NCBI RefSeq assembly: GCF_024223415.1
Contig: NZ_CP100500.1
Length of the DNA stretch: 64,000 nt
Direction: 5' to 3' (one strand)
From: Escherichia coli
Lineage (GTDB): Bacteria; Pseudomonadota; Gammaproteobacteria; Enterobacterales; Enterobacteriaceae
Shown here: positions 5,123 to 33,298 of the stretch, piece after piece
How the letters are laid out: the number at the start of each line of letters is the position of its first letter
How positions within the stretch are numbered: position 1 is the first letter of the stretch
The notes under the pieces: generated by a model
Told to the model about the DNA's origin: nothing
Seen by the model: only the letters and a program-made list of their open reading frames with translations
Database searches by the model: none
Program-made: the position numbers and the translations under genes

Positions 5123-5144
5123 GAGATGAAGCGATGTTTTGGCC

Positions 5145-6606: not shown

Positions 6607-7101
<495 letters not shown>

Positions 7102-7104
7102 GCA

Positions 7105-7133: not shown

Positions 7134-7137
7134 CGGA

Positions 7138-8790: not shown

Positions 8791-9007
8791 ACTTCTCTCC
8801 CTGACCTGATTTCAACGTGTTGAAAAATAGTATGACGCGACATCATAGACAAGTCTGCGTCCGGTGAAGATAAATCTGCATCCAGATTAGAAATTCTGTA
8901 TTCAGCGTTGAGACTTCCTTCAGGCGGCGCATACAGGTATGTTAGTCGGGTAATAATCACAAATAAGATCATTCTTTACATCGCAACCCTGAAAAAGTGA
9001 CTTTCCT

Positions 9008-10228
9008 ATGGCAATGAGTGAACAAACCCAGCCTGTGGCGGGCGCGGCTGCGTCAACGACCAAGGCCCGAACATCGTTTGGTATTTTAGGTGCTATCAGC
9101 CTCTCACATCTGCTGAACGACATGATCCAATCGCTGATTCTGGCGATTTATCCTCTGCTTCAGTCAGAATTTTCTCTGACATTTATGCAGATTGGCATGA
9201 TAACCCTCACCTTCCAGCTCGCCTCTTCGCTACTGCAACCAGTGGTCGGCTACTGGACCGATAAATATCCGATGCCGTGGTCGTTGCCAATTGGCATGTG
9301 CTTTACCTTAAGTGGTCTGGTGCTGCTTGCGCTGGCTGGCAGTTTTGGCGCAGTTCTGCTGGCGGCGGCGCTGGTCGGTACCGGTTCATCGGTCTTTCAT
9401 CCGGAATCTTCTCGCGTGGCCCGTATGGCTTCTGGCGGGCGGCATGGCCTGGCGCAATCAATCTTTCAGGTCGGCGGCAACTTTGGCAGTTCCCTGGGAC
9501 CCTTGCTGGCGGCGGTGATTATCGCGCCTTATGGCAAAGGCAACGTTGCCTGGTTTGTGCTTGCGGCACTGCTGGCGATCGTGGTGTTGGCGCAAATCAG
9601 CCGTTGGTACTCGGCACAGCACCGAATGAATAAAGGAAAACCCAAAGCGACGATTATCAATCCACTGCCGCGCAACAAAGTGGTTCTGGCGGTCAGCATT
9701 CTGTTAATCCTCATTTTCTCGAAATATTTCTATATGGCGAGCATCAGCAGCTATTACACCTTTTATCTGATGCAAAAATTCGGATTATCTATCCAGAATG
9801 CCCAGCTTCATCTGTTTGCCTTCCTGTTTGCCGTTGCGGCAGGTACGGTGATCGGCGGGCCTGTAGGGGATAAAATTGGGCGGAAATATGTGATTTGGGG
9901 CTCTATCCTCGGCGTTGCGCCGTTTACGCTGATTTTACCCTACGCCAGCCTGCACTGGACGGGGGTTTTAACGGTGATTATTGGATTTATCCTCGCTTCG
10001 GCATTCTCTGCCATTCTGGTTTACGCTCAGGAGCTGCTTCCGGGACGTATCGGTATGGTTTCTGGACTCTTTTTCGGTTTTGCTTTCGGCATGGGAGGTC
10101 TGGGAGCGGCAGTTCTGGGGCTTATCGCCGATCACACCAGCATCGAGTTAGTCTATAAAATCTGTGCTTTCCTGCCACTATTGGGGATGTTGACCATATT
10201 CCTGCCTGATAACCGGCATAAAGACTGA
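9008..10228 (+). CDS. fsr: Fosmidomycin resistance MFS transporter Fsr, 406 aa
   Basis: ORF track; recalled protein; multiple TM segments. Confidence 0.93.
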   Translation: MAMSEQTQPVAGAAASTTKARTSFGILGAISLSHLLNDMIQSLILAIYPLLQSEFSLTFMQIGMITLTFQLASSLLQPVVGYWTDKYPMPWSLPIGMCFTLSGLVLLALAGSFGAVLLAAALVGTGSSVFHPESSRVARMASGGRHGLAQSIFQVGGNFGSSLGPLLAAVIIAPYGKGNVAWFVLAALLAIVVLAQISRWYSAQHRMNKGKPKATIINPLPRNKVVLAVSILLILIFSKYFYMASISSYYTFYLMQKFGLSIQNAQLHLFAFLFAVAAGTVIGGPVGDKIGRKYVIWGSILGVAPFTLILPYASLHWTGVLTVIIGFILASAFSAILVYAQELLPGRIGMVSGLFFGFAFGMGGLGAAVLGLIADHTSIELVYKICAFLPLLGMLTIFLPDNRHKD

Positions 10229-10465
10229 TTTCATTGCAGCCAAAGGCAAACTTTGGCTGCATCGTTTTACAGTCGCCATAAGCCTTTCCTCTGTTAAACC
10301 GCCTTCTGTTTTCCGATCCGTGCTTTTTTTGCAGCTAATTCCATTTTTCTGCAAAATTCAATAATTATTCATGAACATCATCAATGAAATTGTCATAAAC
10401 TATTACCTGTAATTTTGGTTTTCCCGGCCAAAAATGGACAATAACCACCAGGAAAAGGAGACGGA

Positions 10466-12142
10466 ATGCATCACGCCACCCCGCTTATCACCACCATTGT
10501 TGGCGGCCTTGTGCTCGCCTTTATCCTCGGCATGCTGGCCAATAAACTACGTATTTCTCCTCTGGTGGGATATCTGTTAGCGGGTGTGCTGGCAGGACCA
10601 TTCACTCCGGGCTTTGTTGCCGATACCAAGCTTGCGCCGGAACTGGCTGAACTGGGCGTTATTTTGCTGATGTTTGGCGTGGGTCTGCACTTTTCGCTGA
10701 AGGATTTGATGGCGGTAAAGGCCATCGCCATTCCCGGTGCGATCGCCCAGATAGCCGTGGCGACGCTGCTGGGTATGGCGCTCTCTGCCGTGCTGGGCTG
10801 GTCGTTAATGACCGGTATCGTGTTCGGTTTATGTCTTTCCACCGCCAGTACCGTGGTGTTACTGCGCGCACTTGAAGAACGGCAATTAATTGACAGTCAG
10901 CGTGGGCAAATCGCCATCGGTTGGTTGATTGTGGAAGACCTGGTAATGGTTCTGACGCTGGTGTTGTTGCCCGCAGTGGCAGGAATGATGGAACAGGGCG
11001 ATGTGGGCTTTGCCACTCTTGCAGTCGATATGGGGATCACCATCGGCAAAGTGATCGCGTTTATCGCCATTATGATGCTGGTAGGTCGCCGTCTGGTGCC
11101 GTGGATTATGGCACGCAGCGCGGCAACCGGTTCTCGCGAGCTGTTTACCCTGTCGGTGCTGGCGCTGGCGTTAGGGATTGCCTTTGGTGCGGTGGAGCTG
11201 TTTGATGTCTCCTTTGCACTCGGTGCGTTCTTTGCCGGGATGGTACTGAACGAGTCTGAACTGAGTCACCGTGCCGCCCACGATACGCTGCCATTGCGCG
11301 ACGCGTTTGCGGTGCTGTTTTTTGTCTCCGTCGGGATGTTGTTTGATCCGTTAATTCTGATTCAGCAACCGCTGGCAGTGCTGGCGACGCTGGCGATTAT
11401 TCTGTTTGGTAAGTCGTTAGCCGCATTTTTCCTGGTGCGACTGTTTGGTCACTCCCAACGTACGGCATTAACTATCGCCGCCAGCCTGGCGCAAATTGGT
11501 GAGTTCGCGTTTATCCTGGCGGGACTGGGCATGGCGCTGGATCTGTTGCCGCAAGCCGGGCAGAACCTGGTACTGGCAGGTGCGATTTTGTCGATTATGC
11601 TCAACCCGGTCCTGTTTGCGCTGCTGGAGAAATATCTGGCGAAGACCGAAACGCTGGAAGAGCAGACGCTGGAAGAGGCAATCGAAGAAGAGAAGCAGAT
11701 CCCAGTGGATATTTGCAACCATGCGCTACTGGTTGGTTACGGTCGTGTAGGCAGCCTGCTGGGGGAGAAATTGCTCGCCTCTGATATTCCGCTGGTGGTG
11801 ATTGAGACGTCACGAACCCGTGTTGATGAGCTGCGAGAGCGCGGTGTCCGCGCAGTATTGGGCAATGCAGCGAACGAAGAAATTATGCAACTGGCGCATC
11901 TGGAATGTGCAAAATGGCTGATCCTGACGATCCCCAACGGTTATGAAGCGGGTGAGATTGTGGCATCTGCCCGCGCGAAAAATCCGGATATTGAGATTAT
12001 TGCCCGCGCCCATTATGACGATGAAGTGGCGTATATCACCGAACGTGGTGCGAATCAGGTAGTGATGGGCGAGCGTGAAATTGCCCGTACTATGCTGGAA
12101 CTGCTGGAAACGCCACCGGCGGGTGAGGTGGTGACGGGGTAA
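10466..12142 (+). CDS. ybaL: CPA2-family cation:proton antiporter YbaL with C-terminal TrkA-N/RCK domain, 558 aa
   Basis: ORF track; GYGRVG nucleotide-binding motif in C-terminal domain. Confidence 0.93.
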   Translation: MHHATPLITTIVGGLVLAFILGMLANKLRISPLVGYLLAGVLAGPFTPGFVADTKLAPELAELGVILLMFGVGLHFSLKDLMAVKAIAIPGAIAQIAVATLLGMALSAVLGWSLMTGIVFGLCLSTASTVVLLRALEERQLIDSQRGQIAIGWLIVEDLVMVLTLVLLPAVAGMMEQGDVGFATLAVDMGITIGKVIAFIAIMMLVGRRLVPWIMARSAATGSRELFTLSVLALALGIAFGAVELFDVSFALGAFFAGMVLNESELSHRAAHDTLPLRDAFAVLFFVSVGMLFDPLILIQQPLAVLATLAIILFGKSLAAFFLVRLFGHSQRTALTIAASLAQIGEFAFILAGLGMALDLLPQAGQNLVLAGAILSIMLNPVLFALLEKYLAKTETLEEQTLEEAIEEEKQIPVDICNHALLVGYGRVGSLLGEKLLASDIPLVVIETSRTRVDELRERGVRAVLGNAANEEIMQLAHLECAKWLILTIPNGYEAGEIVASARAKNPDIEIIARAHYDDEVAYITERGANQVVMGEREIARTMLELLETPPAGEVVTG

Positions 12143-12149
12143 ACGGTGG

Positions 12150-12262
12150 TTGCCGGATGTAAAATATGAAAAATATGTAGGCATGATAAGACGCGCCAGC
12201 GTCGCATCAGGCATCGAGATGCCAAATGCCAGATGCGGCGTGAACGCCTTATCTGGCCTACG
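12150..12262. repeat. REP/BIME elements between convergent ybaL and gsk
   Basis: gcatgataagacgcgccagcgtcgcatcaggc and gccagatgcggcgtgaacgccttatctggcctac. Confidence 0.8.
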
Positions 12263-12275
12263 AACCGACGATAAC

Positions 12276-13580
12276 TTAACGATCCCAGTAAGACTCTTCC
12301 AGGCTGTCTTCACGCTCCGGCAAGCCGCGCGTTAAACGAGGTGAATGCTGGTTCAGTACCTGATAGCTCACACGGTTAGCATATTTACACACCTGCGCTA
12401 ACGATGAATAAGTTAACCAGGTGAATTTATGTTTGCTGGAGTTTGGTACGTTGCTACGGTGGTAGCTGTTGGCGGTAATGTCATGCAGCAACGCTGCCAG
12501 TGCGCCATCCCCTGCTCCGTTGGTGTTCATGATTTTTTCCGGCCCGCCCATGTACGGCGCAATGTGCGAATAGACGCGCAGCGGATTCTGGCAATCCTTG
12601 TGGCGCATGGCGCGGCTAAACTCATACTGGTTGAATTCGGCTATAGCGCCCGGCAGCAACGGATGCTGGGTTTTACGTTTCGCTTCGTCTTCGGTAAAGC
12701 CCGCCATATACAAGCCGATTGGCCCGGCGGTGCACAGCACCAGATCAACCCAGTCCAGTGCCTTGTCAGATGCTAACAACGGATCGCTTTCTCCGGTCAA
12801 CGCTTCGGCTTCATCTTCGTTCATCGCAAGGATAGAGACGTGGTCTTTGAGGAATTGCTGCCACCACTGCGGATTCTCGGCAATGACAAACTTAGTTCCC
12901 AGCGTCAGCACCACCGGTACGTTATATTTCTTCGCGTACTCAATGGCTTTCATGGTTGCTTCCGGCATGGGTTCACCCGGCTTGCAACGCACCAGATAAG
13001 AGGTGAGAACCAGAGCCGAGGCTCCGGCAATCACATCTTCCGGAATACTTTCAGCCCGCAGCTGGTTCATGTGGCCAGGGCTGATAGCAAAGGTACGTTC
13101 CCCGGACTCGCCAATCAGCGTAAAGCAACGACCAATCGGGCCATCCACGCCTTGTAGATAGTTAAGATCGGTACGGCTGGAGGTGTTACACAGGTAACGA
13201 TAGGCATAGCTGCCAATTTCAATATTGCTGCACATGACGCCCAGCAGCACCGAACGGTCGTCCGCGAGCACCGAGTAGTTATGCATGGTGTTACCAATGG
13301 TGCCACCCGCAAACTGATGGGTAATCAGGTTTTTCTGTTTTAGTTCCTGATAAAGCGCTTCGGCTACATCATCCTCAATCACCAGTGAATGCCCGGCGCT
13401 TAATCCATAACGCTCAATGAATTCATCATCCACTTTCGCTTCAATATCGACCAGCGTTTGATCGATACCCACTACCCAGGCGGCGCTGGTTTCGTTTTCT
13501 GGCTGGAATTGCTGAAGCAGCGGATCGCGTGCATTTACGGGGAAGTAATGTTTGGATTTACGTTTACCGGGAAATTTCAT
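12276..13580 (-). CDS. gsk: Inosine-guanosine kinase Gsk, 434 aa
   Basis: ORF track; recalled protein. Confidence 0.95.
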   Translation of the reverse strand: MKFPGKRKSKHYFPVNARDPLLQQFQPENETSAAWVVGIDQTLVDIEAKVDDEFIERYGLSAGHSLVIEDDVAEALYQELKQKNLITHQFAGGTIGNTMHNYSVLADDRSVLLGVMCSNIEIGSYAYRYLCNTSSRTDLNYLQGVDGPIGRCFTLIGESGERTFAISPGHMNQLRAESIPEDVIAGASALVLTSYLVRCKPGEPMPEATMKAIEYAKKYNVPVVLTLGTKFVIAENPQWWQQFLKDHVSILAMNEDEAEALTGESDPLLASDKALDWVDLVLCTAGPIGLYMAGFTEDEAKRKTQHPLLPGAIAEFNQYEFSRAMRHKDCQNPLRVYSHIAPYMGGPEKIMNTNGAGDGALAALLHDITANSYHRSNVPNSSKHKFTWLTYSSLAQVCKYANRVSYQVLNQHSPRLTRGLPEREDSLEESYWDR

Positions 13581-13731
13581 GGTTGTTTTTACGGGTGGTT
13601 AACTGAGCGGCGAATGTTAACACAATCTGACGGGAGCGCGCGAGACGCAGCCAGTTTCAATATCAGCAGGCGGGATCGCATTTTCATGGCAGTGGTTCCT
13701 TACAATGACGTAATTTGAAAGGAGTTTTTGT

Positions 13732-14691
13732 ATGAAGCCGGAAAACAAATTACCTGTTCTGGACCTTATTTCTGCTGAAATGAAGACCGTTGTGAATACT
13801 CTTCAGCCGGATTTACCGCCCTGGCCCGCAACGGGAACGATTGCTGAGCAACGACAGTATTACACGCTTGAGCGCCGATTCTGGAATGCGGGCGCTCCAG
13901 AAATGGCAACCAGAGCTTACATGGTTCCAACAAAATATGGGCAGGTGGAAACACGTCTCTTTTGTCCGCAGCCAGATAGCCCAGCGACGCTATTTTATTT
14001 GCATGGAGGCGGTTTTATTCTCGGCAATCTCGATACCCACGATCGCATCATGCGCCTGCTGGCAAGCTACAGCCAATGTACGGTGATTGGTATTGATTAC
14101 ACCCTTTCACCTGAAGCGCGTTTTCCGCAAGCGATAGAGGAAATTGTGGCTGCTTGTTGTTATTTCCACCAGCAGGCGGAGGATTATCAAATCAATATGT
14201 CCCGCATTGGCTTTGCCGGTGATTCCGCAGGTGCCATGCTGGCGCTCGCCAGTGCGTTGTGGTTGCGTGATAAACAGATCGATTGCGGTAAAATTGCGGG
14301 TGTTTTGCTGTGGTATGGTCTTTACGGATTACGGGATTCCGTGACTCGTCGTCTGTTGGGCGGTGTCTGGGATGGCTTAACGCAACAGGATTTGCAGATG
14401 TATGAAGAGGCGTATTTAAGCAACGACGCGGACCGCGAGTCGCCGTATTACTGTCTGTTTAATAATGATCTCACTCGCGAAGTTCCGCCCTGTTTTATTG
14501 CCGGGGCGGAGTTCGATCCGCTGCTGGATGACAGCCGTCTGCTTTACCAGACGTTAGCGGCGCATCAGCAGCCCTGTGAGTTCAAACTCTACCCAGGCAC
14601 GCTGCACGCCTTTTTGCATTATTCACGGATGATGAAAACCGCGGACGATGCTCTTCACGACGGCGCTCAGTTCTTTACCGCTCAGCTTTAG
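13732..14691 (+). CDS. aes: Acetyl esterase Aes, 319 aa
   Basis: ORF track; HGGGF and GDSAG motifs. Confidence 0.95.
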
Positions 14692-15650
14692 CGATACGCG
14701 GCAACAAGATTAGCCATCATTTCGATATGTTCCGGCGTGGCATTAAGCGCCGGAATATATTCATATTTTTTCCCGCCGGCACCGAGGAAGACCTCACGGT
14801 TTTGCTCGGCAATCTCTTCCAGCGTCTCCAGACAATCCGCAGCAAAGCCCGGGCACATCACCTGAATATGACCTACGCCTTTTTCTCCGAGCATTTTCAG
14901 CGTTTCGTCGGTATAAGGCATCAGCCAGGGTTCCCGACCAAAGCGCGACTGAAAGGTCATCATCACTTTTTCCGGTGCCATCCCCAGTGCGGAAGCCAGT
15001 TCGCGAGTCGTTGTGCGGCAACGTTGCGGGTAATCATCGCCTTCATCTGCATAACGCTGGGGAATGCCATGATAAGAGAGCAGCAGCAGATCCGGTTCGC
15101 CATGTTTGGCAAAAGAAGCGCGTACGCTGTTCGCCAGTGCATTAATGTAATCGTGGTTATCGGCGTAATCACGTATAAACGATATCCCCGGAATGCTACG
15201 TTTGCGCGCCAGAATGCGTGCAAGTTCATCCCATACCGCACCGACCGTAGAACAGGAGAATTGCGGATAAAGCGGCAGCACCACAATATGATCTACATGC
15301 TCTGCCAGGAGTTCATCTACGGCGCTTTCCAGTGATGGCGAGCCGTAGCTCATTCCCAGCGCTACGGGCGTCTCCGGTAAACGTTGTGCCAGCGCCTGCT
15401 GTTGCTGGCGGCTGTAAACCATCAGCGGCGAGCCACCTTCCATCCAGACAGAGGCATACAGCTTCGCCACACGCGGCGAGCGCAGCGGCAAAATCACGCC
15501 ACGCAGCAACGGCCACCATAACAACCGTGAGGTATCAACCACGCGTCTGTCGCTTAAAAATTGTTTCAGATAGCGTTTTACCGCTTCAGGTGTGGGGGCA
15601 TCGGGCGTACCCAGGTTTGCCAGCAGGATACCGGTTTTAGTCTGACGCAT
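14688..15650 (-). CDS. hemH: Ferrochelatase HemH, 320 aa
   Basis: ORF track; recalled protein; 3' end overlaps aes by 4 nt. Confidence 0.95.
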
Positions 15651-15781
15651 TACCGCCTCTTATCGATTCAACTTGTTGATAATTGTAGCGGAAAAGTGAG
15701 GAAGAAGAACTAATTGCTGTGAGAGGTATTGCCTGAGGTGGATGAGCAGACCTGCCCGAAAGCAGATCTGCTGCGGCTTGA

Positions 15782-16498
<717 letters not shown>

Positions 16499-16567
16499 TC
16501 AAGAAAGGCACCAGGGGCTAAAACGGTTAATGGCGAGATAATTTGCGGAAAGTGCAGATAATGAAAA

Positions 16568-16600
16568 GAAAAATGCCGGATGACACGAAGGTCATCCGGC
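16568..16600 (-). terminator. Rho-independent terminator downstream of htpG
   Basis: gccggatgac-N7-gtcatccggc hairpin with T-run on the minus strand. Confidence 0.6.
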
Positions 16601-16606
16601 ATTACA

Positions 16607-18481
16607 TCAGGAAAGCAGCAGCTGGTTCATACGACGAATAAACAGGTTCGGATCTTCCAGCGTGCCGCGTTCTGCCAGCAGCGCCTGATCCAGCAGCAGT
16701 TCTACCCACTCGCTGAACTTCGCTTCATCTTCAGTATCTGCCGCACGTTTCACCAGTACGTGATCCGGGTTCAGTTCGAAGATGTATTTCACTTCCGGCA
16801 CTTTCTGGCCCGCTGCGGCAAACAGTTTCGCCATCTGAGTGCTCATTTCGTCCGCATCAGTAGAGACAATCGCTGGCGTATCGGTCAGACGGTGAGTCAG
16901 ACGGACATCTTTCACGCGCTCGCCGAGCAGGGCTTTCACACGGTCGATGAACGGAGTCAGTGCTTTCTCCGCTTCTTTCGCGCTCTCATCAACTTCGTCA
17001 GCCAGTTTTTCCAGCGACTCGTCAACTTTAGACACCGACTGGAACGGTTTACCGTCGAACTCAGTCAGATAGTTCATCATCCACTCATCGATGCGGTCGG
17101 AAAGCAGCAGAACTTCGATGCCTTTCTTACGCAGCAGTTCCAGGTGCGGGCTGCTCTTCGCTGCCGCATAGCTGTCTGCAGTGATGTAGTAGATTTTCTC
17201 CTGCCCTTCTTTCATGCGGGAAACGTAGTCTTCCAGAGACACGGTCTGCGCAGAAGAATCGGTATGAGTAGAAGCAAAACGCAGCAGTTTGGCGATCGCT
17301 TCCTGGTTAGCGAAATCTTCCGCCGGACCTTCTTTCAGTACCAGGCCAAACTGTTGCCAGAAGGTCTGGTATTTTTCCGCGTCGTCTTTCGCCAGTTTTT
17401 CCAGCATTTGCAGCACACGCTTGGTCAGCGCATTGCGCAGGTTACGCGTTACCGTGCTGTCCTGGAGGATTTCACGGGAAACGTTCAGCGGCAGATCGCT
17501 GGAGTCAATCAGACCACGCACGAAGCGCAGATAGTTCGGCATGAACTGTTCTGCGTCGTCCATGATGAACACACGCTGAACATACAGTTTCAGACCGTGT
17601 TTATGATCACGGTTCCACATATCCCACGGAGCCTGGGACGGGATGTACAGCAGGCTGGTGTACTCCTGCTTACCTTCAACACGGTTGTGGCTCCAGGTCA
17701 GCGGATCGTTAAAGTCGTGGGCGATGTGTTTGTAGAACTCTTTGTACTCTTCATCGGTGATTTCCGACTTGTTACGAGTCCACAGCGCCTGCGCTTTGTT
17801 GATTTTTTCCCAGGAGATAACGGTTTCGCCGTCTTTCTCTTCGCGTTTTTCGATCTCTACCGGCAGCGCGATATGGTCGGAGTATTTGCTGATGATGGAA
17901 CGCACGCGCCAGTCATCGAGGAACTCGTCTTCGCCTTCACGCAGATGCAGGGTGATTTCAGTACCACGATCTTCTTTGGTGATGTCGGCAACGGTGTATT
18001 CACCTTCGCCAGCCGATTCCCAGAAGACGCCATTTTCTGGTTTTTCGCCTGCCGCGCGAGTACGCACGGTCACTTTGTCGGCCACGATAAACGCAGAGTA
18101 GAAACCAACACCAAACTGACCGATCAGCTGGCTGTCTTTCGCCTGGTCAGAACCCAGGGATTCGAGGAATGATTTGGTACCGGATTTAGCGATAGTCCCC
18201 AGATGGTCAATCACTTCGTCGCGGGTCATCCCCACGCCGTTATCGGAGATGGTCAGCGTGCGCTTGTCTTTATCGAAAGAGACACGAACGCGCAGTTCGC
18301 CATCACCTTCGTACAGGTCCGGGTTAGAGAGCGCACGGAAACGCAGCTTGTCCGCCGCATCGGAGGCGTTAGAGATAAGCTCACGCAGGAAGATTTCTTT
18401 ATTGGAATAGAGAGAATGGATCATCAGGTGCAGAAGCTGTTTCACTTCTGACTGAAAACCACGAGTTTCTTGTCCTTTCAT
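16607..18481 (-). CDS. htpG: Chaperone HtpG (Hsp90), 624 aa
   Basis: ORF track; recalled protein. Confidence 0.97.
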
Positions 18482-18532
18482 GTAGGTCTACCTCAATAAT
18501 GCCATTTTAAGGTTAAAAACAGGATGAGGGAG

Positions 18533-18561
18533 AGATGGGGACAAGGGAGAATAATTTCAAG
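18533..18561 (-). promoter_or_regulatory. Sigma-32 heat-shock promoter of htpG (CTTGAAA -35, CCCCATCT -10)
   Basis: Minus strand reads cttgaaa-N14-ccccatct about 50 nt upstream of the htpG ATG. Confidence 0.6.
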
Positions 18562-18590
18562 CGAGAGCAGGTGATCCTGCTCTCGTTTGC

Positions 18591-19195
18591 TTAAAAACGA
18601 ATCTTATGACGCCCGGCAAGGGAGTGTGACAGCGTGGTGCCATCGACCATTTCCAGTTCGCCGCCAACCGGTACGCCATGAGCGATTCGGCTGGCTTCCA
18701 CGTCATATTGCGCGCAAAGCTCGGCAATGTAGTTAGCGGTAGCTTCACCTTCAACCGTGGGATTGGTGGCGAGGATCACTTCAGTGATTTTTTCCTCTGC
18801 CAGACGCTGTTCCAGACGATCAAGCCCGATATCATCCGGACCGATGCCGTCCAGCGGTGACAGATGTCCCATCAACACAAAATAACGACCTGAAAACTGC
18901 CCCGTCTGCTCAATGGCGTAAATGTCCGCCGGACTCTCCACCACGCAGATTTGACCGTTTTCCTGACGACGCGGATTCGAACAGATGTTACAGACTTCCT
19001 GTTCGGTGAAGGTGCGGCAATCGGCGCAGTGGCCGATTTCCGACATCGCCCGGGTGAGCGCCTGCGCCAGACGCATCCCGCCGCTACGATCGCGCTGAAG
19101 CAGCGTGAACGCCATACGCTGCGCCGACTTCGGGCCAACGCCCGGCAGACAGCGCAGTGCTTCCATAAGCTGTGTTAACAGCGGGCTGGTTTGCA

Positions 19196-19196
<1 letters not shown>
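18591..19196 (-). CDS. recR: Recombination protein RecR, 201 aa
   Basis: ORF track; C4 zinc finger and Toprim-type motifs. Confidence 0.96.
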
Positions 19197-19540
<344 letters not shown>

Positions 19541-19577
19541 TCACGTTAAGGATGACGAACGTAAGCTGTGCTTACGA

Positions 19578-21515
19578 TCAAATGGGGCGGATACTTTCTT
19601 CATCCAGCTCCGCATCGAAAAACCGACGCAGGGTCTGAATATTATTATCCGCAATAATGGACTCGCGCGCCTGCGCAAGTTTTTCTTCGTATATCGCCTG
19701 ACGCCACTCCAGCGGCGTACGCACCGCGGGATTATCATCTTCAACGATAGTCAGTTCAACCGTTGAACCTTTTAACATGCTCAACGCTTCAGCCAGTTTT
19801 TGCTGTGCACCGCGGTTGTTCAAATGCCGCTGAGAGGAGCGCAAATGCAGACATACTGCGTTGTCGCTCTCCTCTTTCCAGGCATTTAACGCCACCTGTT
19901 CGACCAGTTTTGGTAGCGAAAGTTGGCTCACCTGTGCCGCCCACGGGTCGCGCTCAATGGCTTCTGCCGCTAGCTTCGCCGCCAGTTCCGGCGTTTTTTC
20001 ATGTTCCAGCGCTTTTTTCAGCGCCTTCGGCGTGGCGACCACTTCTTTTTGCTGTATCACCGGAGTGGTCGCCTTCCAGCGATACGCTTCTTTTTTGGCT
20101 GGCGCTTTTTCCAGCGCCGATGGCACCGGACGCGCCTGAACGCGATCGGTGACCGAAGCCAGTCTTTCCAGCGCAGCGTTATTCACCGGCCGCGCGCGGG
20201 TAGCGGCTGCCGGTTCACTCTTTTTTGCTTTGGTTGCTCCCTGCACGCGCTGCAACTGCTGGCGCGCCGCCAGCACCTGGCTGGTGGTTTCCGGGAGCGG
20301 TACAGTCGGTGCCTGCTGCGGCGCTGATTGCGGTTGCGGTTGCGGCGGCACCTGGGTTGGCGTCATTACTGCCGTTGGCGCGACGGGTGCAAAGGACTGG
20401 CGTGGCACTTCTGGCTCAGGCAGCGGCATACGCGGATGGAACGCCAGCGCGCGCAGCAGCGTCATCTCAACGCCCATGCGGCGGTCCGGCGCATACGGTA
20501 ATTCTTTGCGACCAATCAACAGCGTCTGATAGTAAAGCTGAATATCCGTCGGCGGTATGGTGCGCGCCAGTTCACGCATCCGCAGCTCGATGGCGGCCAT
20601 GTCGTTGCCAAGTGCAGCAGGCGAAAGTTGTACCATCGCAATACGATGCAACAGGCCGAGCATTTCCACCAGCAACGCTTCCCACTCGATACCACGGGCA
20701 GCGGCTTCATTAATCAGCGCCATTACGCGCTCGCCGTTGGCCTCGACCATCGCTTCAACCAGCGACAGCGCCTGATCGTCGTCAAGCGTACCCAGCATCG
20801 CACTGACCGCCTGGGTTGAAACCTGGCCGTCACCGCTGGCAATCGCCTGGTCGGTCAGACTTAAGGCATCTCGCAGGCTGCCTTCAGCGGCGCGCGCCAG
20901 CAATTGCAGCGCCCGCGGCTCGTGAGCGATATGTTCTTCATTGAGGATGTGCTCAAGTTGATGGCGAATTTGCTCGACATCCAGCGCCTTGAGATGAAAT
21001 TGCAAACAGCGCGACAAAATCGTCACCGGCAATTTCTGTGGATCGGTCGTCGCCAGCAGAAACTTAACGTGCTCCGGCGGCTCTTCAAGAGTTTTTAACA
21101 GTGCGTTAAAGCTGTGGCGCGACAGCATATGCACTTCGTCGATGAGATAAACTTTGAAACGACCACGCGCCGGAGCGTACTGGACGTTATCCAGCAGGTC
21201 GCGAGTGTCTTCAACTTTGGTGCGCGAGGCGGCGTCGATTTCAATCAGATCGACAAAGCGCCCCTGCTCGATTTCACGACAGTTATCGCACACGCCGCAC
21301 GGCGTCGCGGTAATGCCGGTTTCGCAGTTTAGCCCCTTCGCCAGCAGTCGGGCGATAGAGGTTTTTCCGACGCCACGGGTACCGGAAAAAAGATAAGCAT
21401 GATGAATACGCCCTAACGACAAGCCGTTCGCCAGTGCGGTCAGCACATGTTCCTGGCCGACGACGTCAGCAAAGGTTTGTGGGCGCCATTTTCGGGCTAA
21501 GACCTGATAACTCAT
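19578..21515 (-). CDS. dnaX: DNA polymerase III tau/gamma subunit DnaX, 645 aa in this sequence
   Basis: ORF track; Walker A GTRGVGKT; internal recoding site. Confidence 0.96.
   Translation of the reverse strand: MSYQVLARKWRPQTFADVVGQEHVLTALANGLSLGRIHHAYLFSGTRGVGKTSIARLLAKGLNCETGITATPCGVCDNCREIEQGRFVDLIEIDAASRTKVEDTRDLLDNVQYAPARGRFKVYLIDEVHMLSRHSFNALLKTLEEPPEHVKFLLATTDPQKLPVTILSRCLQFHLKALDVEQIRHQLEHILNEEHIAHEPRALQLLARAAEGSLRDALSLTDQAIASGDGQVSTQAVSAMLGTLDDDQALSLVEAMVEANGERVMALINEAAARGIEWEALLVEMLGLLHRIAMVQLSPAALGNDMAAIELRMRELARTIPPTDIQLYYQTLLIGRKELPYAPDRRMGVEMTLLRALAFHPRMPLPEPEVPRQSFAPVAPTAVMTPTQVPPQPQPQSAPQQAPTVPLPETTSQVLAARQQLQRVQGATKAKKSEPAAATRARPVNNAALERLASVTDRVQARPVPSALEKAPAKKEAYRWKATTPVIQQKEVVATPKALKKALEHEKTPELAAKLAAEAIERDPWAAQVSQLSLPKLVEQVALNAWKEESDNAVCLHLRSSQRHLNNRGAQQKLAEALSMLKGSTVELTIVEDDNPAVRTPLEWRQAIYEEKLAQARESIIADNNIQTLRRFFDAELDEESIRPI
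20220..20226 (-). other. dnaX programmed -1 frameshift site (A AAA AAG) with downstream stem-loop, producing gamma
   Basis: Plus strand cttttttgc is the reverse complement of gcAAAAAAGag; GC-rich stem-loop at about 20170-20215. Confidence 0.8.
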
Positions 21516-21643
21516 TGGCAGGCTCTGAAACGCTGGAAGGTGGATTCACGAAGGGGTAATGCTAACACAGCCCCGTCAGAACGGCGAGGCTGAATGCACA
21601 TCTTGTGCTGTCCGTAGCGTGGGCAGCACAAGACTGGCGATAA

Positions 21644-22195
21644 TTAATGGCCCGGGAACGGGACAAGGCTGTAGCTGGTAATGCCCTGTTTTTCGAGACG
21701 CTGTTCGCCGCCGAGATCGAACAGGTTGATAATGAACGCAGCGTCAGCCACTTCACCACCCAGACGACGGATCAGTTTAACGGTCGCTTCGATAGTGCCG
21801 CCGGTTGCCAGCAGATCGTCCACCACCAGAACTTTGTCGCCCGGTTTGATGGCATCAACGTGGATCTCCAGCTGATCGGTGCCGTATTCCAGATCGTAAG
21901 TTTCACTGATAGTTTCACGCGGCAGTTTGCCCGGTTTACGGACCGGTACAAAGCCAACGCCCAGACCCAGAGCTACCGGAGCGCCAAACAAGAAGCCACG
22001 CGCTTCGGTGCCGACAACTTTGGTAATGCCCGCATTTTTGTAACGCTCAACCAGCAAGTCGATGCTGAGAGCGTAAGCTTTCGGGTCTTCCAGTAAGCTG
22101 GTGACATCGCGGAAAAGAATGCCGGGTTTTGGGTAGTCCTGAATGCTTTTGATGCTATTTTTGAGATACTCAAGCTGCTGTGCAGTCGCGGTCAT
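21644..22195 (-). CDS. apt: Adenine phosphoribosyltransferase Apt, 183 aa
   Basis: ORF track trimmed to [23 protein letters not shown]. Confidence 0.95.
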
Positions 22196-22347
22196 AAGTG
22201 TATGCCTGCTTGTTACGGTGGTACTCACGGCGCGTTTTAAACGTATCAAAAGTAACAGTTGTTTAACCTTTGACCGCCTGCGCCTGTGCTCGAAAACGCC
22301 AGAATGTACTGGCTGTACGCAATAATTGCAACTGCGATTGTTGTGCT

Positions 22348-22725
22348 TCAGTGCTTTTCTTGCTTTTCATCAATCACCGGAATTCGCCACATATAGAAAA
22401 GCAAACAGGCGAGAATTACCAGCAACATGATGCGCACCCATGGCATCTGGACGAACCACAGAGAAATGGCAAACGTGAGCAAAATAAGCAAAATCGCCCG
22501 CGGTTTGACGCCGCGCGGCATCGCATGATGTTTCTGCCAGAAACGTAGATAGCTGCCAAACCATGAGCGGTACAGCAACCAGGCGTGAAAGCGCGGGGAA
22601 GAACGGGCAAAGCACCAGGCCGCTAGCAGGATAAACGGCGTCGTCGGTAATACCGGTAATACCACGCCCAGCGTACCCAGCACTACCGCCAGCCAGCCAA
22701 TGATGATTAAAATGATTCGTTGCAT
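22348..22725 (-). CDS. ybaN: Inner membrane protein YbaN (DUF454), 125 aa
   Basis: ORF track; hydrophobic; synteny. Confidence 0.9.
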
Positions 22726-22794
22726 ATTGAGTGTTGTCAGCTTACAGAGTGGCTACTTTAGCATAACAATTATCATTTTCATTGAGGTCTTATC

Positions 22795-23322
22795 GTGAAA
22801 ACCGCCCTGCTGCTGGAAAAACTGGAAGGACAGCTCGCCACGCTGCGCCAGCGTTGTGCCCCGGTGTCACAGTTCGCCACGCTAAGTGCTCGTTTCGACA
22901 GGCATCTTTTTCAGACTCGTGCGACAACACTACAGGCTTGTCTCGACGAGGCGGGCGATAATCTGGCTGCGCTTCGTCATGCAGTTGAGCAGCAACAGCT
23001 GCCGCAAGTGGCCTGGCTGGCGGAACATCTGGCGGCACAACTGGAGGCTATAGCGCGTGAAGCCACAGCCTGGTCGCTACGCGAGTGGGATAGCGCACCA
23101 CCCAAAATTGCCCGCTGGCAGCGTAAACGTATTCAGCATCAGGATTTTGAGCGGCGGCTACGTGAGATGGTTGCCGAACGCAGAGCCCGCCTGGCGCAGG
23201 TAACCGATCTCGTGGAACAGCAAACGCTGCATCGTGAAGTGGAAGCCTATGAAGCGCGCCTGGCACGCTGCCGCCATGCGCTGGAAAAAATCGAAAACAG
23301 GTTAGCGCGTTTAACCCGCTAG
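22795..23322 (+). CDS. priC: Primosomal replication protein N'' PriC, 175 aa (GTG start)
   Basis: ORF track; recalled protein. Confidence 0.93.
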
Positions 23323-23335
23323 CAATGGAGAGAGT

Positions 23336-23497
23336 ATGTCACTGGAAAATGCCCCCGACGATGTCAAACTGGCCGTCGATTTAATTGTGCTGCTGGAAGA
23401 AAATCAGATCCCAGCCCGCACCGTGCTGCGCGCGCTGGATATTGTAAAGCGTGATTATGAAAAGAAATTAACGCGCGATGATGAGGCGGAAAAGTGA
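23336..23497 (+). CDS. ybaM: Small protein YbaM (DUF2496), 53 aa
   Basis: Manual translation [53 protein letters not shown]; below the ORF-track size cut-off. Confidence 0.75.
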
Positions 23498-23550
23498 GAA
23501 ATAAATGGGGTGGCTAAATGTCCCCTAAGGTTGCGGGCAAACGCAAAACT

Positions 23551-23650
23551 GCCTGATGCGCTACGCTTATCAGGCCTACACCGATCCTGCAATATATTGA
23601 ATTTTTGCGGTTTCGTAGGCCGGATAAGGCGGTCACGCCGCATCCGGCAT
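23551..23650. repeat. REP/BIME elements between ybaM and mscK
   Basis: gcctgatgcgctacgcttatcaggcctac and gtaggccggataaggcggtcacgccgcatccggc. Confidence 0.8.
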
Positions 23651-23708
23651 GAACAACGCGCACTTTGTTAGCAATCTCGGGGCAACAAAATGTCGCCCCC
23701 TTTCGTTA

Positions 23709-26700
23709 TTACCCTACCGCTGGCGTCGGGTCGTCGCCTTTGTAGTCGCGTTTTACTTCCGTCACCTCATCGCCCTTCTCGTTGTGCAGATGCACTTCAA
23801 GCTGGTTAAAGGCAATGTTGATGTCGTTTTCACGGCACAGCTGATCGATAGTACGGTTCAGCTCATCGACAGTACGGCTACGGTCACGCAGTTCACGCAC
23901 ATACAGACGCAGCTCATGATCCAACGTGCTGGCACCAAATGCCGTAAAGAAGACTTCCGGCATTGGTTCGTGCATCACCCTTGGGTGCTCAGTCGCCGCC
24001 TTCAGTAACACTTTACGCACTTTTTCCAGATCGGAGCCATAGGCCACGCCGAGACGGATCACCAGACGCGTAGTAGTGTCAGTCAACGACCAGTTGATCA
24101 GACGCTCGGTAACAAACGCTTTGTTCGGGATGATCACTTCTTTGCGATCGAAATCGGTAATCGTTGTCGCACGAATACGGATCTTACTTACCGTCCCCGA
24201 GAAGCTACCAATGGTTACCGTATCGCCAATACGCACCGGACGTTCGAATAGAATGATCAAACCGGAGACGAAGTTACCGAAAATTTCTTGTAAACCAAAA
24301 CCAAGACCTACGGATAATGCTGCTGCCAGCCACTGGAGTTTATCCCAAGAGACGCCCAGCGATCCGAACACCGTCATCGCACCAACAGCAATAATGATGT
24401 AGTTAAGGATGGTAGTAATGGCATACGACGCGCCCTGGCGCATATTCAGTCGCGAGAGCACCAGCACTTCTAGTAAACCAGGCAGGTTGCGAATCAACGC
24501 CCAGGCCACCATTGAGGCGATAATCGCAAACAACAGACTGCCCATGGTGACGTTTTTCACCACCGCAGCGCCAGCTTCAGTGCCGTTGTAATGCCAGAGC
24601 GTGATGCTGTCGAGATAGCTGAACACGGTGATCAAATCGGACCAAATTGCCCAGAACATGACACCGAACAGCGCAAACATCAGCAACATGGTAATACGCA
24701 GCGTCTGCTGGTTAACCTGTTCCAGTGCAATGGTGGGTTCTTCCGGCGGTTCGGCACCTTCTGCGCCCTCTTTCACCAGATTCTGCCGACGCGCCAGCGC
24801 ACGACGCCAGGCGATACGCCGCGCCGCTACGCTTAAGCCGCGCAATACCGTCTGGTAGAGCAAGTTCCAGATGATCACCAGATAAACGGTTTCAATCCAA
24901 CGCCCGGAGAGGCGCAGCGTGGTGTAGAAATAACCCGTGGCAGTCAGCACCATCAATGCAATCGGGATAATCGACAGCACGGTAATGGTGACCAGTCGCA
25001 TGGTGTGCGACTCTTTATCACGCCAGCTTTCGCGGCACATTGGCCATACCAGGAAGGCAATCAGCAGCAGGTTGAAGAAAATCATCGCCTGCCCCAGCAC
25101 ATCATCCATCAGATGCAGCGGGGAAAGTTCTGCCACCACAGACCAGAAATGGATAGGCAGCAACGCGAGACTGATGCGGACAATTTGCCGACGCCAGTGG
25201 CTGGTCTGCTGCTCCGGCATGCCGAAGTGACGCACGGCAACGCCATTTTTCTCCAGTACCTTCCAGCACAGGCCAAACACCAGCCAGAAAATCGCCAGTT
25301 TTTTACTGAACGACCATAGCAGTTCGCTGATGTTGAGCTGCATGGTCAACAGAATCAGGCCAACCGCGAGAATAATCAGGCACACCGGCAGTGCACGGAT
25401 CAGGTCGATAAGGATCGCTTTTGGTGTGTTGAGCTGGCTGTCGTTACGCAGGGAACCCACAGCGGAAGCCAGTTTTTGTTGATACGCTTTCAGCCACCCC
25501 AGACGCCAGTGGATCAGCCCGGCAATCAACAGCAGCGGCAAACCAGCGAGGAAAGCGATAAAAACGGCGGGCCAGGCTTTTTCCCAGTTCACCGTAATTT
25601 TCATCGACTTAAATTCATCTTTCAGGCTTTGCGGGAACGCTTTGATCCAGTCCCAGTCCATTGGACGGTTACTGTTCACCCAAAAGATTTGCTGAGTCAG
25701 GATGGATTTCAGGTTTTTCGACACACTCATTAACTGCTGCTGGTTGATTTGCAGGTTAATGGCCATCATCAGCTGGTTACCCAACTGTTTGTTGAGTTGA
25801 TCCAGCAATTCGCGACGCATATCAACCACTTGCAATAACGCATCGTGAACTTCGCTGTTGACTTCGTTGGTGTGACCTTCTTCCAGTTTGTTGACGAACG
25901 CATCGCTCTGGAAGAGTGCATCACGCTGCTGGTTAACTTCAAACTGTTCGAGACGCAAATCCGCGATGCGGTTGGTCATGTTTTCCAGTTCATCCGCCGA
26001 GGGCAGCGTTTGTTGTTGCTGGTAAAGGATACGAGACAACAGCAGGCTGCCCTTCAGGACGGCAATCTGCTCTTTAATATTGCGTTCCGATTGCAGCGCC
26101 CGCTCCAGCCAGTTTTTGACTTTAATGTTTTGCTGCATCAACTGATTACCGTTTTCAGTCGCGGTAATCAGACGCTGACTTAACTGCTGGTTAATTTCCA
26201 GTTCCTGCTTCACCAGCGGATTAGCCTGAATACGCGCGGCTTCATCCGGGGAGACGGCTTCCTGCGCCGTTTTTTCGGTTAAAGTCAGGCGCTTGCTGTT
26301 TACCGCTTCTTGCAACAGTTGCAACTGGTGCTCCAGACGGGCGCTGTTCGCCGTCACGTAATCACGTTGCTTTTGCAAGGTATCCTGCAAGACGGTATTC
26401 CCTTCCAGGCTTTTACGCTGCTGGTCAATCTCCGCATTCAGCAACGCCTGCTGAGCCTGCATTAACACTTTCTGGCTGGGACGTAAGGCAGTCTCGCCGA
26501 CATCAGTCCCATCCAGACGACTGCGAATTTGTTGCAGCTGCTGCGAAGCGTTATACATCGCATTTTGCACGCGTTCGGGCTGCGTCTGTAACGAAACCAG
26601 CTGGCTGTTATAAGACGCCAGATCGTTTTGTGCGTTTTGCAAATCGTCCAGCGCCTGGGCAACGCGAGTTTCCAGCTGGCGCAACGAAAGCGTGCTCAGA

Positions 26701-27071
26701 ATTTTGCGCGTTTCTTCGTCGTTATCGACATCGCTAAGTGCTGTTAACGCCGCGGTCGCCTGGCGCATTTTTTCCGGCGCTTCAGCGACTTTTTGCCGTA
26801 GCTGAACGGTCTCTTCTTTTACGCGATCGATTTTATCGAGGGTGGCTAATGTATCTGTCAGATCCTGCTGCACCAGTTTGTCCTGAGCAGAAAGATCTTT
26901 TTGTTTATTTAATGAGTCAAGTTGCGCCTGCAGGTCCGCTTTTGTCGGCAGATCACCATTCGATGACGCCCGCGCAAACGCCGTGTTCTGGCATAACAAG
27001 ACAAAAACAAAAGCAATAAATGCTGAAAAAACAAAATGCCGTGATCGTTTGTAATACTGGAACATAGTCAT
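23709..27071 (-). CDS. mscK: Potassium-dependent mechanosensitive channel MscK (KefA/AefA), 1120 aa
   Basis: ORF track; signal peptide, long periplasmic coiled-coil region, TM block, MscS-like C-terminal domain. Confidence 0.95.
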   Translation of the reverse strand: MTMFQYYKRSRHFVFSAFIAFVFVLLCQNTAFARASSNGDLPTKADLQAQLDSLNKQKDLSAQDKLVQQDLTDTLATLDKIDRVKEETVQLRQKVAEAPEKMRQATAALTALSDVDNDEETRKILSTLSLRQLETRVAQALDDLQNAQNDLASYNSQLVSLQTQPERVQNAMYNASQQLQQIRSRLDGTDVGETALRPSQKVLMQAQQALLNAEIDQQRKSLEGNTVLQDTLQKQRDYVTANSARLEHQLQLLQEAVNSKRLTLTEKTAQEAVSPDEAARIQANPLVKQELEINQQLSQRLITATENGNQLMQQNIKVKNWLERALQSERNIKEQIAVLKGSLLLSRILYQQQQTLPSADELENMTNRIADLRLEQFEVNQQRDALFQSDAFVNKLEEGHTNEVNSEVHDALLQVVDMRRELLDQLNKQLGNQLMMAINLQINQQQLMSVSKNLKSILTQQIFWVNSNRPMDWDWIKAFPQSLKDEFKSMKITVNWEKAWPAVFIAFLAGLPLLLIAGLIHWRLGWLKAYQQKLASAVGSLRNDSQLNTPKAILIDLIRALPVCLIILAVGLILLTMQLNISELLWSFSKKLAIFWLVFGLCWKVLEKNGVAVRHFGMPEQQTSHWRRQIVRISLALLPIHFWSVVAELSPLHLMDDVLGQAMIFFNLLLIAFLVWPMCRESWRDKESHTMRLVTITVLSIIPIALMVLTATGYFYTTLRLSGRWIETVYLVIIWNLLYQTVLRGLSVAARRIAWRRALARRQNLVKEGAEGAEPPEEPTIALEQVNQQTLRITMLLMFALFGVMFWAIWSDLITVFSYLDSITLWHYNGTEAGAAVVKNVTMGSLLFAIIASMVAWALIRNLPGLLEVLVLSRLNMRQGASYAITTILNYIIIAVGAMTVFGSLGVSWDKLQWLAAALSVGLGFGLQEIFGNFVSGLIILFERPVRIGDTVTIGSFSGTVSKIRIRATTITDFDRKEVIIPNKAFVTERLINWSLTDTTTRLVIRLGVAYGSDLEKVRKVLLKAATEHPRVMHEPMPEVFFTAFGASTLDHELRLYVRELRDRSRTVDELNRTIDQLCRENDINIAFNQLEVHLHNEKGDEVTEVKRDYKGDDPTPAVG

Positions 27072-27198
27072 GATGAATGAAGGTTTCTGAACCTGAAGAA
27101 CGACCTGAAAAAGTCAAACCGCAAGAATATCACGACGCAGTGAACCAGAATAGCAACGACGAAAATGTCCAGGAAAAATCCTGGAGTCAGATTCAGGG

Positions 27199-27846
27199 TT
27201 ATTCGTTAGTGGCAGGATTACGAAGCGTGGGGCACAGGAGATACATCTCCAGTAAGATGGCAACGTAATCGCGGGCTTCTTTTTTAAGATCAAAAGATTG
27301 CGGGGCAAAGAGCCAGTTTTCCATCAGGCCGGAAATATAGCCGCGCATAATAATTGCTGCGCGACGCGTCATTAAATCCGCAGGCAACATTTTCGCTTCA
27401 ATACAATGTTTTAACGTTTGTTCTATACGGTCATAACTTTCCAGACAGAGATTACGTTGTGCCTGTTGCACAACAGCCATTTCTCCGACAAATTCGCATT
27501 TGTGGAATATAATCTCCATCAATAATCGACGCCGTTCTTCTGTCACCGTGGATTCAAGAACATGAATTAATATCTCTCTTAATACTGAGAGTGGATCGCC
27601 AGGGAATTTTGCCTGATACTCAAGCTCTAGTTCACCAATATTGGATTCTGACAGTTCCCAGATCTCACTGAACAAATCCGACTTATCTTTAAAATGCCAG
27701 TAGATTGCACCGCGCGTAACGCCAGCTGCTTTTGCAATCTCGCCCAGCGAGGTGGATGATACCCCCTGCTGTGAGAAAAGACGTAGAGCCACATCGAGGA
27801 TGTGTTGGCGCGTTTCTTGCGCTTCTTGTTTGGTTTTTCGTGCCAT
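27199..27846 (-). CDS. acrR: TetR-family repressor AcrR, 215 aa
   Basis: ORF track; divergent from acrAB. Confidence 0.96.
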
Positions 27847-27874
27847 ATGTTCGTGAATTTACAGGCGTTAGATT

Positions 27875-27898
27875 TACATACATTTGTGAATGTATGTA
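27875..27898. promoter_or_regulatory. AcrR operator, 24-bp palindrome in the acrR-acrA divergent promoter region
   Basis: tacatacatttgtgaatgtatgta between acrR and acrA. Confidence 0.8.
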
Positions 27899-27987
27899 CC
27901 ATAGCACGACGATAATATAAACGCAGCAATGGGTTTATTAACTTTTGACCATTGACCAATTTGAAATCGGACACTCGAGGTTTACAT

Positions 27988-29181
27988 ATGAACAAAAACA
28001 GAGGGTTTACGCCTCTGGCGGTCGTTCTGATGCTCTCAGGCAGCTTAGCCCTAACAGGATGTGACGACAAACAGGCCCAACAAGGTGGCCAGCAGATGCC
28101 CGCCGTTGGCGTAGTAACAGTCAAAACTGAACCTCTGCAGATCACAACCGAGCTTCCGGGTCGCACCAGTGCCTACCGGATCGCAGAAGTTCGTCCTCAA
28201 GTTAGCGGGATTATCCTGAAGCGTAATTTCAAAGAAGGTAGCGACATCGAAGCAGGTGTCTCTCTCTATCAGATTGATCCTGCGACCTATCAGGCGACAT
28301 ACGACAGTGCGAAAGGTGATCTGGCGAAAGCCCAGGCTGCAGCCAATATCGCGCAATTGACGGTGAATCGTTATCAGAAACTGCTCGGTACTCAGTACAT
28401 CAGTAAGCAAGAGTACGATCAGGCTCTGGCTGATGCGCAACAGGCGAATGCTGCGGTAACTGCGGCGAAAGCTGCTGTTGAAACTGCGCGGATCAATCTG
28501 GCTTACACCAAAGTCACCTCTCCGATTAGCGGTCGCATTGGTAAGTCGAACGTGACGGAAGGCGCATTGGTACAGAACGGTCAGGCGACTGCGCTGGCAA
28601 CCGTGCAGCAACTTGATCCGATCTACGTTGATGTGACCCAGTCCAGCAACGACTTCCTGCGCCTGAAACAGGAACTGGCGAATGGCACGCTGAAACAAGA
28701 GAACGGCAAAGCCAAAGTGTCGCTGATCACCAGTGACGGCATTAAGTTCCCGCAGGACGGTACGCTGGAATTCTCTGACGTTACCGTTGATCAGACCACT
28801 GGGTCTATCACACTACGCGCTATCTTCCCGAACCCGGATCACACTCTGCTGCCGGGTATGTTCGTGCGCGCACGTCTGGAAGAAGGGCTTAATCCAAACG
28901 CTATTTTAGTCCCGCAACAGGGCGTAACCCGTACGCCGCGTGGCGATGCCACCGTACTGGTAGTTGGCGCGGATGACAAAGTGGAAACCCGTCCGATCGT
29001 TGCAAGCCAGGCTATTGGCGATAAGTGGCTGGTGACAGAAGGTCTGAAAGCAGGCGATCGCGTAGTAATAAGTGGGCTGCAGAAAGTGCGTCCTGGTGTC
29101 CAGGTAAAAGCACAAGAAGTTACCGCTGATAATAACCAGCAAGCCGCAAGCGGTGCTCAGCCTGAACAGTCCAAGTCTTAA
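27988..29181 (+). CDS. acrA: Multidrug efflux periplasmic adaptor lipoprotein AcrA, 397 aa
   Basis: ORF track trimmed to MNKNRGFTPLAVVLMLSGSLALTGC lipobox. Confidence 0.96.
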   Translation: MNKNRGFTPLAVVLMLSGSLALTGCDDKQAQQGGQQMPAVGVVTVKTEPLQITTELPGRTSAYRIAEVRPQVSGIILKRNFKEGSDIEAGVSLYQIDPATYQATYDSAKGDLAKAQAAANIAQLTVNRYQKLLGTQYISKQEYDQALADAQQANAAVTAAKAAVETARINLAYTKVTSPISGRIGKSNVTEGALVQNGQATALATVQQLDPIYVDVTQSSNDFLRLKQELANGTLKQENGKAKVSLITSDGIKFPQDGTLEFSDVTVDQTTGSITLRAIFPNPDHTLLPGMFVRARLEEGLNPNAILVPQQGVTRTPRGDATVLVVGADDKVETRPIVASQAIGDKWLVTEGLKAGDRVVISGLQKVRPGVQVKAQEVTADNNQQAASGAQPEQSKS

Positions 29182-29200
29182 CTTAAACAGGAGCCGTTAA

Positions 29201-32353
<3,153 letters not shown>

Positions 32354-32372
32354 TACAACGTGTAATCACTAA

Positions 32373-32394
32373 GGCCGCGTAAGCGGCCTTTTTT
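32373..32394 (+). terminator. Rho-independent terminator of acrAB
   Basis: ggccgcgtaagcggcc hairpin plus T6 about 20 nt after the acrB stop. Confidence 0.75.
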
Positions 32395-32898
32395 ATGCAT
32401 AACCTACGAACATTAAGGAGTAATTGAACCACCAACTCAGGATCTCATACGAAAACCAGTATTAACCACGGATAAAATTCATAAAAAATACTGATTGTTA
32501 GTTAATTTATATTAAGTAGCGCTAATAGATTTAATAATCCATAATCATTTAGAGGCTATTCTTAATTATTTGCGGTAATTCTTTATTCATTCCTCGGTTA
32601 TTACGTCATATTCAGAGCAATCCTGGTATTAGTGTCACCAATTTCATCTGGCGATAATCCTGAAATGTTATGAACAGTTCGAGCAAACTGCTTTTACCTG
32701 CTGCGGGTTGGTGCTAGTATGAAAAAGTGAGCCCTGTCCCGCTTCCTTCCTAATTGTAATTTTTCGTAATAATGCGATGAAAACCTGCAAAGAGTGGCTT
32801 ATAGTTAAGCTAACAAACGAGAGGGCAAGTCCAGGTCAGTAAGTTTTTTCCATCCCGAAAGGTGTCCGTTAGTTCAACCGCTAAGAAGGGGACGCGTT

Positions 32899-33273: not shown

Positions 33274-33298
33274 AATTATTACAACCATGGGTAGAAGT

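Follow-up and report, generated by a model that had tools for sequence, protein, structure and literature searches.

dnaX is an essential gene, which encodes the tau and gamma subunits of the clamp loader of DNA polymerase III. In the window, which is the whole stretch of 64,000 nucleotides of Escherichia coli DNA analyzed here, ORFs for apt, ybaB, and recR are found on either side of this gene in the same order as in K-12 and in strain SCU-316, and the wider context reads priC-ybaN-apt-dnaX-ybaB-recR-htpG. A sequence-only reading of the window had described an ORF of 645 residues at this place without stating its strand; the ORF is real and runs on the minus strand, with a translation starting MSYQVLARKWRPQTF. 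The features discussed below are as follows.

19578..21515, minus strand: dnaX coding sequence for full-length tau, 645 aa (ATG at 21515..21513, TGA at 19580..19578; from the ORF list)
20215..21515, minus strand: gamma reading frame, consisting of residues 1-432, a -1 shift, Glu, and the stop codon TGA at 20215..20217 (simulated shift)
20262..20441, minus strand: proline/glutamine-rich tether, residues 359-418, containing the repeat (gap between PF12169, which ends at 358, and PF12168, which starts at 419)
20328..20345, minus strand: hexanucleotide repeat (CCGCAA)3, coding for PQPQPQ, codons 391-396 (Tandem Repeats Finder)
20181..20245, minus strand: DnaX programmed -1 ribosomal frameshifting element (Rfam RF00382)
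20220..20226, minus strand: slippery heptamer A AAA AAG, dnaX nt 1290-1296, codons 431-432 for Lys-Lys (read from the sequence)
20055..20057, minus strand: codon 487, ATA (Ile), corresponding to ATG (Met485) in K-12, in the DnaB-binding domain IV (alignments)

The product is covered over residues 1-645 by the NCBIfam equivalog NF005942 with a score of 982.7 bits (cutoff, 613). Five Pfam models, PF13177 (residues 20-178), PF22608 (182-230), PF12169 (232-358), PF12168 (419-500), and PF12170 (502-642), all score above their cutoffs, and the five-domain architecture is complete; AAA+ ATPase, lid, domain III collar, domain IV for DnaB binding, and domain V for alpha binding. The ATPase motifs of a clamp loader can be read from the translation, namely the Walker A P-loop GTRGVGKT at residues 45-52 and SRC at residues 168-170, together with a Cys4 zinc module composed of Cys64, Cys73, Cys76, and Cys79. 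In the alignment with K-12 DnaX, the Walker A motif, the zinc module, and the SRC motif are all identical.

The length of this protein is what had drawn attention to the gene. K-12 DnaX was taken in the sequence-only reading to be a protein of 643 aa, and an in-frame indel of 6 nt in the proline/glutamine-rich linker, of which the peptide TQVPPQPQPQSAPQQAPTVPLPE was quoted (found at DnaX residues 387-409), was proposed to explain the two additional residues. This length is correct, as dnaX of K-12 MG1655 (NC_000913.3, 492092..494023) encodes 643 aa, and the proposed indel was borne out by both the protein and the DNA alignments with K-12. Pairwise alignment by BLASTP, in which the lengths differ as 645 versus 643 aa, gives 642/645 identities (99%) and a single gap of two residues in the PQ tract, where the window has TQVPPQPQPQSAP and K-12 has TQVP--PQPQSAP. 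The nucleotide alignment likewise has a single gap of 6 nt, at dnaX nt 1171-1176, within the CCGCAA repeats. The window carries (CCGCAA)3 at dnaX nt 1171-1188, which Tandem Repeats Finder reports at 20328..20345 as a perfect array with a period of 6, 3.0 copies, and 100% matches, and K-12 carries (CCGCAA)2; both arrays begin in codon phase 0 at codon 391. The difference thus amounts to exactly one whole repeat unit, with the gap inside a perfect head-to-tail array, and one extra CCGCAA unit, coding for Pro-Gln, is the whole cause of the difference between 645 and 643 aa. An alternative start codon was also considered as a source of the difference and was rejected, as both proteins align from Met1.

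In other respects, the two genes are very similar. K-12 DnaX (tau, NP_415003.1, 643 aa; gamma, YP_009518751.1, 431 aa) shares its start, its stop, and its local gene order with the window gene, has all of the Pfam domains found there, and is identical at 642 of the 643 alignable residues. Apart from the indel, the two coding sequences differ at 15 positions, comprising 14 synonymous changes and one missense change, M485I, no other amino acid being substituted between the two proteins. This pattern is the one expected under purifying selection. The extra Pro-Gln in the tether, M485I, and the 14 synonymous changes are therefore the differences that separate the window gene from that of K-12.

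The extra unit lies in the tether that joins the domain III collar to domain IV and that gamma and tau share. The sequence-only reading had held that a difference in a catalytic domain would point instead to a sequencing error; the insertion is outside the catalytic domain, in residues 359-418, between the models for domain III and domain IV. Proline and glutamine account for 15 and 12, respectively, of the 71 residues from 362 to 432. The segment has been described as proline-rich and probably flexible (Jergic et al., PMC1888804), and a 2024 JBC paper (PMC11470591) regards it as a long, unstructured linker, which lends tau mobility and connects the clamp loader with the domains that bind helicase and polymerase. 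Truncated constructs used for clamp-loader structures stop at 368-373 and those for structures of the C-terminal domain begin near 499-501, a comparison that refers to construct lengths at the sequence level and not to resolved residues. The PQ insertion lies beyond the 368-373 end of the truncated constructs.

The insertion is also located upstream of the site at which gamma is produced. The DnaX frameshifting element is detected by Rfam RF00382 with 96.8 bits (gathering score, 35) over model positions 1-65 of 65, and its parts, an internal Shine-Dalgarno-like AGGGAG, the slippery heptamer, and a downstream stem-loop, are intact. This stretch is identical between the window and K-12 in the alignment and is annotated in SCU-316 as 'DnaX frameshifting element'. 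K-12 gamma is annotated as a two-piece CDS, and a simulated -1 shift predicts that gamma is 433 aa long in the window, as compared with 431 aa in K-12, both ending in ATKAKKE. With the insertion upstream of the place of the -1 shift, each product is lengthened by two residues, to 645 aa for tau and 433 aa for gamma. The CCGCAA repeat is about 100 nt upstream of the slippery heptamer, and, judging from the sequence, the known stimulators of frameshifting, that is, the Shine-Dalgarno-like sequence, the heptamer, and the stem-loop, are unaltered by the insertion.

How common the three-copy allele is was examined in 5,426 complete E. coli genomes. The full dnaX sequence of the window matches 5,424 of them, and only nine records span all 1,938 nt. 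With a query of 78 nt across the repeat, nine full-length matches with 100% identity were found, which represent genomes with three copies (9/5,426; 0.17%), and nearly all the other genomes matched the same query at 92.3% over a span of 72 nt, which represents two copies. A two-copy query matched 5,412 genomes at 95% identity or more and 11 genomes at 90-95%. Copy number therefore varies within E. coli, nine of the 5,426 genomes having three copies and about 5,410 having two. No one-copy allele was found among the 5,426 complete genomes, the records at 99% or more with the corresponding query being the nine three-copy genomes matched in two pieces. Nor was a four-copy allele found among them, as a query with 14-nt flanks gave no match spanning 52 nt; flanks of this length are unable to seed in two-copy genomes, and recovery of the nine three-copy genomes served as a positive control. 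With long-flank synthetic queries, two partial pieces were joined and scored as one '100%' place, so that the identity bands from such queries are misleading.

Short repeats are error-prone on some sequencing platforms, and an allele present in only 9 of 5,426 genomes could for this reason be taken for a sequencing or assembly artefact of six bases in a low-complexity tract. However, nine complete genomes, which come from different laboratories, hosts, and countries, have the identical allele. Their sources are human, chicken, calf, pig, and farm environment, one record being without a source, and two NCTC reference strains are included. In addition, the exact 645-aa protein, which is WP_000121998.1 in RefSeq, is present on at least 1,000 public contigs in a collection of 15 billion proteins, and the change is a whole in-frame unit rather than a homopolymer error. 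Because nine independently assembled complete genomes share the allele and the exact protein is found on at least 1,000 contigs, an artefact is excluded, its chance being practically nil. The three-copy allele is a real, rare natural variant, which is already catalogued in public databases.

A perfect tandem repeat whose copy number is polymorphic between strains is also what a contingency locus would look like, that is, a hypermutable microsatellite toggling frequently in phase or length. Such a locus would have many alleles, frequent switching, and a long tract, none of which applies to the CCGCAA tract. First, only two alleles exist among the 5,426 genomes, those with one copy and four copies being missing. 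Second, the six closest relatives of the window all hold three copies. Third, the tract is 12-18 nt long, and hexamer repeats become unstable through microsatellite slippage only at lengths far above two or three units. Finally, the unit is a multiple of three nucleotides and cannot switch expression. The idea that this tract toggles often is hardly tenable.

The direction of the change can be judged from its distribution. Slippage removes units as easily as it adds them, and an alignment by itself has no polarity, so that three copies might be ancestral and the 6-nt deletion might have occurred in K-12 and most other E. coli. Against this, more than 5,400 genomes of all kinds have two copies, the aligned homologues from Citrobacter and Salmonella do not have (PQ)3, and the carriers consist of a tight clonal group and one small second group. 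Ancestry of the three-copy form is thus exceedingly unlikely, and the near universality of two copies in E. coli, together with the lack of (PQ)3 in the aligned related genera, indicates that three copies are the derived state.

The first of these groups comprises six carriers, SCU-316, NCTC10444, NCTC9112, KV7, O78 strain 3, and GPEC1446, whose identity to the window over 25 kb is about 100%; the next-nearest genomes are at 99.2% in the same comparison. Four carriers tie with the bit score of SCU-316; the score of O78 strain 3 is a little lower, and the alignment of GPEC1446 is split in two. All six have dnaX nucleotides 100% identical to those of the window, and WP_000121998.1 is the accession annotated for this same allele in SCU-316. 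Outside dnaX, 15 substitutions and one gap over 63 kb separate SCU-316 from the window, positions 819..64000 being 99.975% identical. The window is thus not SCU-316, as the 100% match over 25 kb might have suggested, and it coincides with none of the other complete genomes either. Ile487 is confined to this group, as an exact match of 61 nt around the codon was found in these six genomes and in no others.

The second group comprises strains 32F4, 33F4, and 33E from one Swiss farm, which carry the PQ insertion and keep Met at K-12 position 485. Their protein, WP_088128425.1, is likewise 645 aa long and has the same (CCGCAA)3 array as the window, with four nucleotide differences from the window in dnaX (strain 33F4). 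The chromosome of 33F4, however, has 101 substitutions relative to the window over 14 kb (0.7%) and represents a different background. By sequence comparison, then, the three-copy allele sits on two backgrounds. The stretch of dnaX from nt 426 to 1460 is identical in the window, 33F4, and a two-copy O145 strain except for the indel and one other site, and so carries no local signal; the allele on the second background may have arisen either by a separate slippage event or by recombination.

The same comparisons brought out several features elsewhere in the window. Positions 1..818 are unrelated to SCU-316, which has glsA there, and this stretch together with the start of copA is covered to 80% or more in only five complete genomes. 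In one of them, strain GF60, the stretch is the junction of a P2-like prophage (ogr/Delta, late control D, and tail genes) with copA, and the strain from which the window derives probably carries a P2-like prophage beside copA as well. Between ybaQ and copA, at approximately 3575..4923, lies a transposase of the IS3-family element IS1397 with a programmed frameshift, an annotation transferred from SCU-316, with which the window is collinear in this part. IS1397 is an element that targets clusters of intergenic palindromic units, and the near-identical repeats of about 70 nt on its two sides, at 3451-3524 and 4987-5060, are probably such clusters. The adk-hemH intergenic region (window ~15700..15830) is about 104 bases longer in K-12, where it occupies ~11729..11963 and hemH begins at locus position 11964, than in the window, 33F4, and O145 RM9872, where hemH begins at 11860. 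The additional bases are probably a repetitive extragenic element, which some strains have and others lack.

Changes in length are not restricted to the PQ repeat. When 16 DnaX proteins of different lengths from Escherichia, Citrobacter, and Salmonella were aligned, all gaps fell within window residues 365-497, and no indel was found in domains I-III or domain V. The DnaX proteins listed for Citrobacter and Salmonella are mostly of 642 aa, with occasional forms of 640, 643, 645, and 661 aa. A Salmonella enterica DnaX of 645 aa (homologue P0130) has a tandem duplication of PQV at window residues ~386-390, a few residues upstream of the PQ repeat, and represents a separate case of slippage affecting this tether. 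Confinement of the indels to 365-497, including the separate PQV duplication in Salmonella, indicates that the tether tolerates changes in length.

Larger changes are found in deposited E. coli proteins. Those of 674 and 612 aa differ by exactly +31 and -31 residues, respectively, through duplication or deletion of the block ALEKAP...ATPK. This block is bounded by a direct repeat of 17 nt with 94% identity and a spacing of 93 nt, at 20009-20025 and 20102-20118, whose arms read GGCGCTGGAAAAAGCGC and GGCGCTGAAAAAAGCGC on the coding strand, and recombination or slippage between these repeats appears to have yielded the two forms as reciprocal products. An imperfect 18-nt repeat of 1.9 copies was also reported in dnaX by Tandem Repeats Finder, at 19985..20020 (ATGAAAAAACGCTGGAAC-like on the coding strand, ...KKALEHEKTPE...), and overlaps one arm of the direct repeat spaced by 93 nt. 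Other E. coli deposits of 623, 620, and 617 aa have in-frame deletions of 20-26 residues in the tether or domain IV, and the tether of one 642-aa form reads as if frame-shifted and then restored, TRAAATAISAAAGTDCTA. These deposits (homologues P0024, P0031, P0092, and P0021, aligned to window residues 365-460) may be either viable alleles or assembly errors. Like the change in the window, those in the Salmonella protein of 645 aa and the E. coli proteins of 674, 623, 620, 617, and 612 aa are in frame and located in the tether or domain IV; they differ from it in position and size, the two residues gained in the window being the smallest change. Short direct repeats flank several of the variants, as would fit an origin by slippage or illegitimate recombination, and on this sequence evidence such repeats appear to drive the changes in length in the 365-497 region, which is the part of the protein where indels are tolerated.

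An adaptive reading holds that the longer linker, alone or with M485I, alters the coupling of the replisome through the geometry of tau, DnaB, and Pol III, or alters the ratio of gamma to tau. The tether does connect the clamp loader with the helicase- and polymerase-binding domains (PMC11470591), the window lineage has two private changes in the protein, both in the region of the linker and domain IV, and the presence of the allele on two backgrounds 0.7% apart over 14 kb could reflect recurrence or transfer. However, two residues are few against a tether of about 60 unstructured residues, and deposited sequences from E. coli and Salmonella contain much larger in-frame indels here (+/-19-31 aa). 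The signals for frameshifting are the same as in K-12, with the repeat about 100 nt upstream of the slippery site, and the allele is still rare, with no sign of a sweep. Adaptation of this kind is thus quite unlikely. The more specific proposal that the lengthened tether and the linked M485I measurably retune replisome coupling or clamp-loader dynamics, and that the allele reached its two backgrounds through selection or transfer rather than by chance recurrence, is very unlikely.

The most satisfactory explanation, in which we have high confidence, is replication slippage at a short tandem repeat, giving rise to a probably neutral polymorphism of linker length in dnaX. As the anatomy of the repeat suggests, slippage or unequal pairing between two pre-existing identical CCGCAA units in an ancestor of the lineage would have generated the third unit. 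The insertion alters neither the folded domains nor the ATPase motifs nor the frameshift signal. Functional neutrality, or something close to it, is therefore expected of the allele, as is its persistence as a marker of the lineage. Its rarity (0.17%) and the existence of only two repeat-number alleles could also fit weak selection against changes in length, and in the window's lineage the insertion and the linked, private M485I may have a joint effect.

The 645-aa DnaX is therefore a genuine natural allele and not a problem of annotation or sequencing, and it makes both tau and gamma two residues longer in this lineage. The feature is an ordinary one, already catalogued, and opens no new question. 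The three-copy allele, alone or with M485I, could serve as a lineage marker, and it is a further small piece of natural evidence that the tether of the clamp loader tolerates a change in length.
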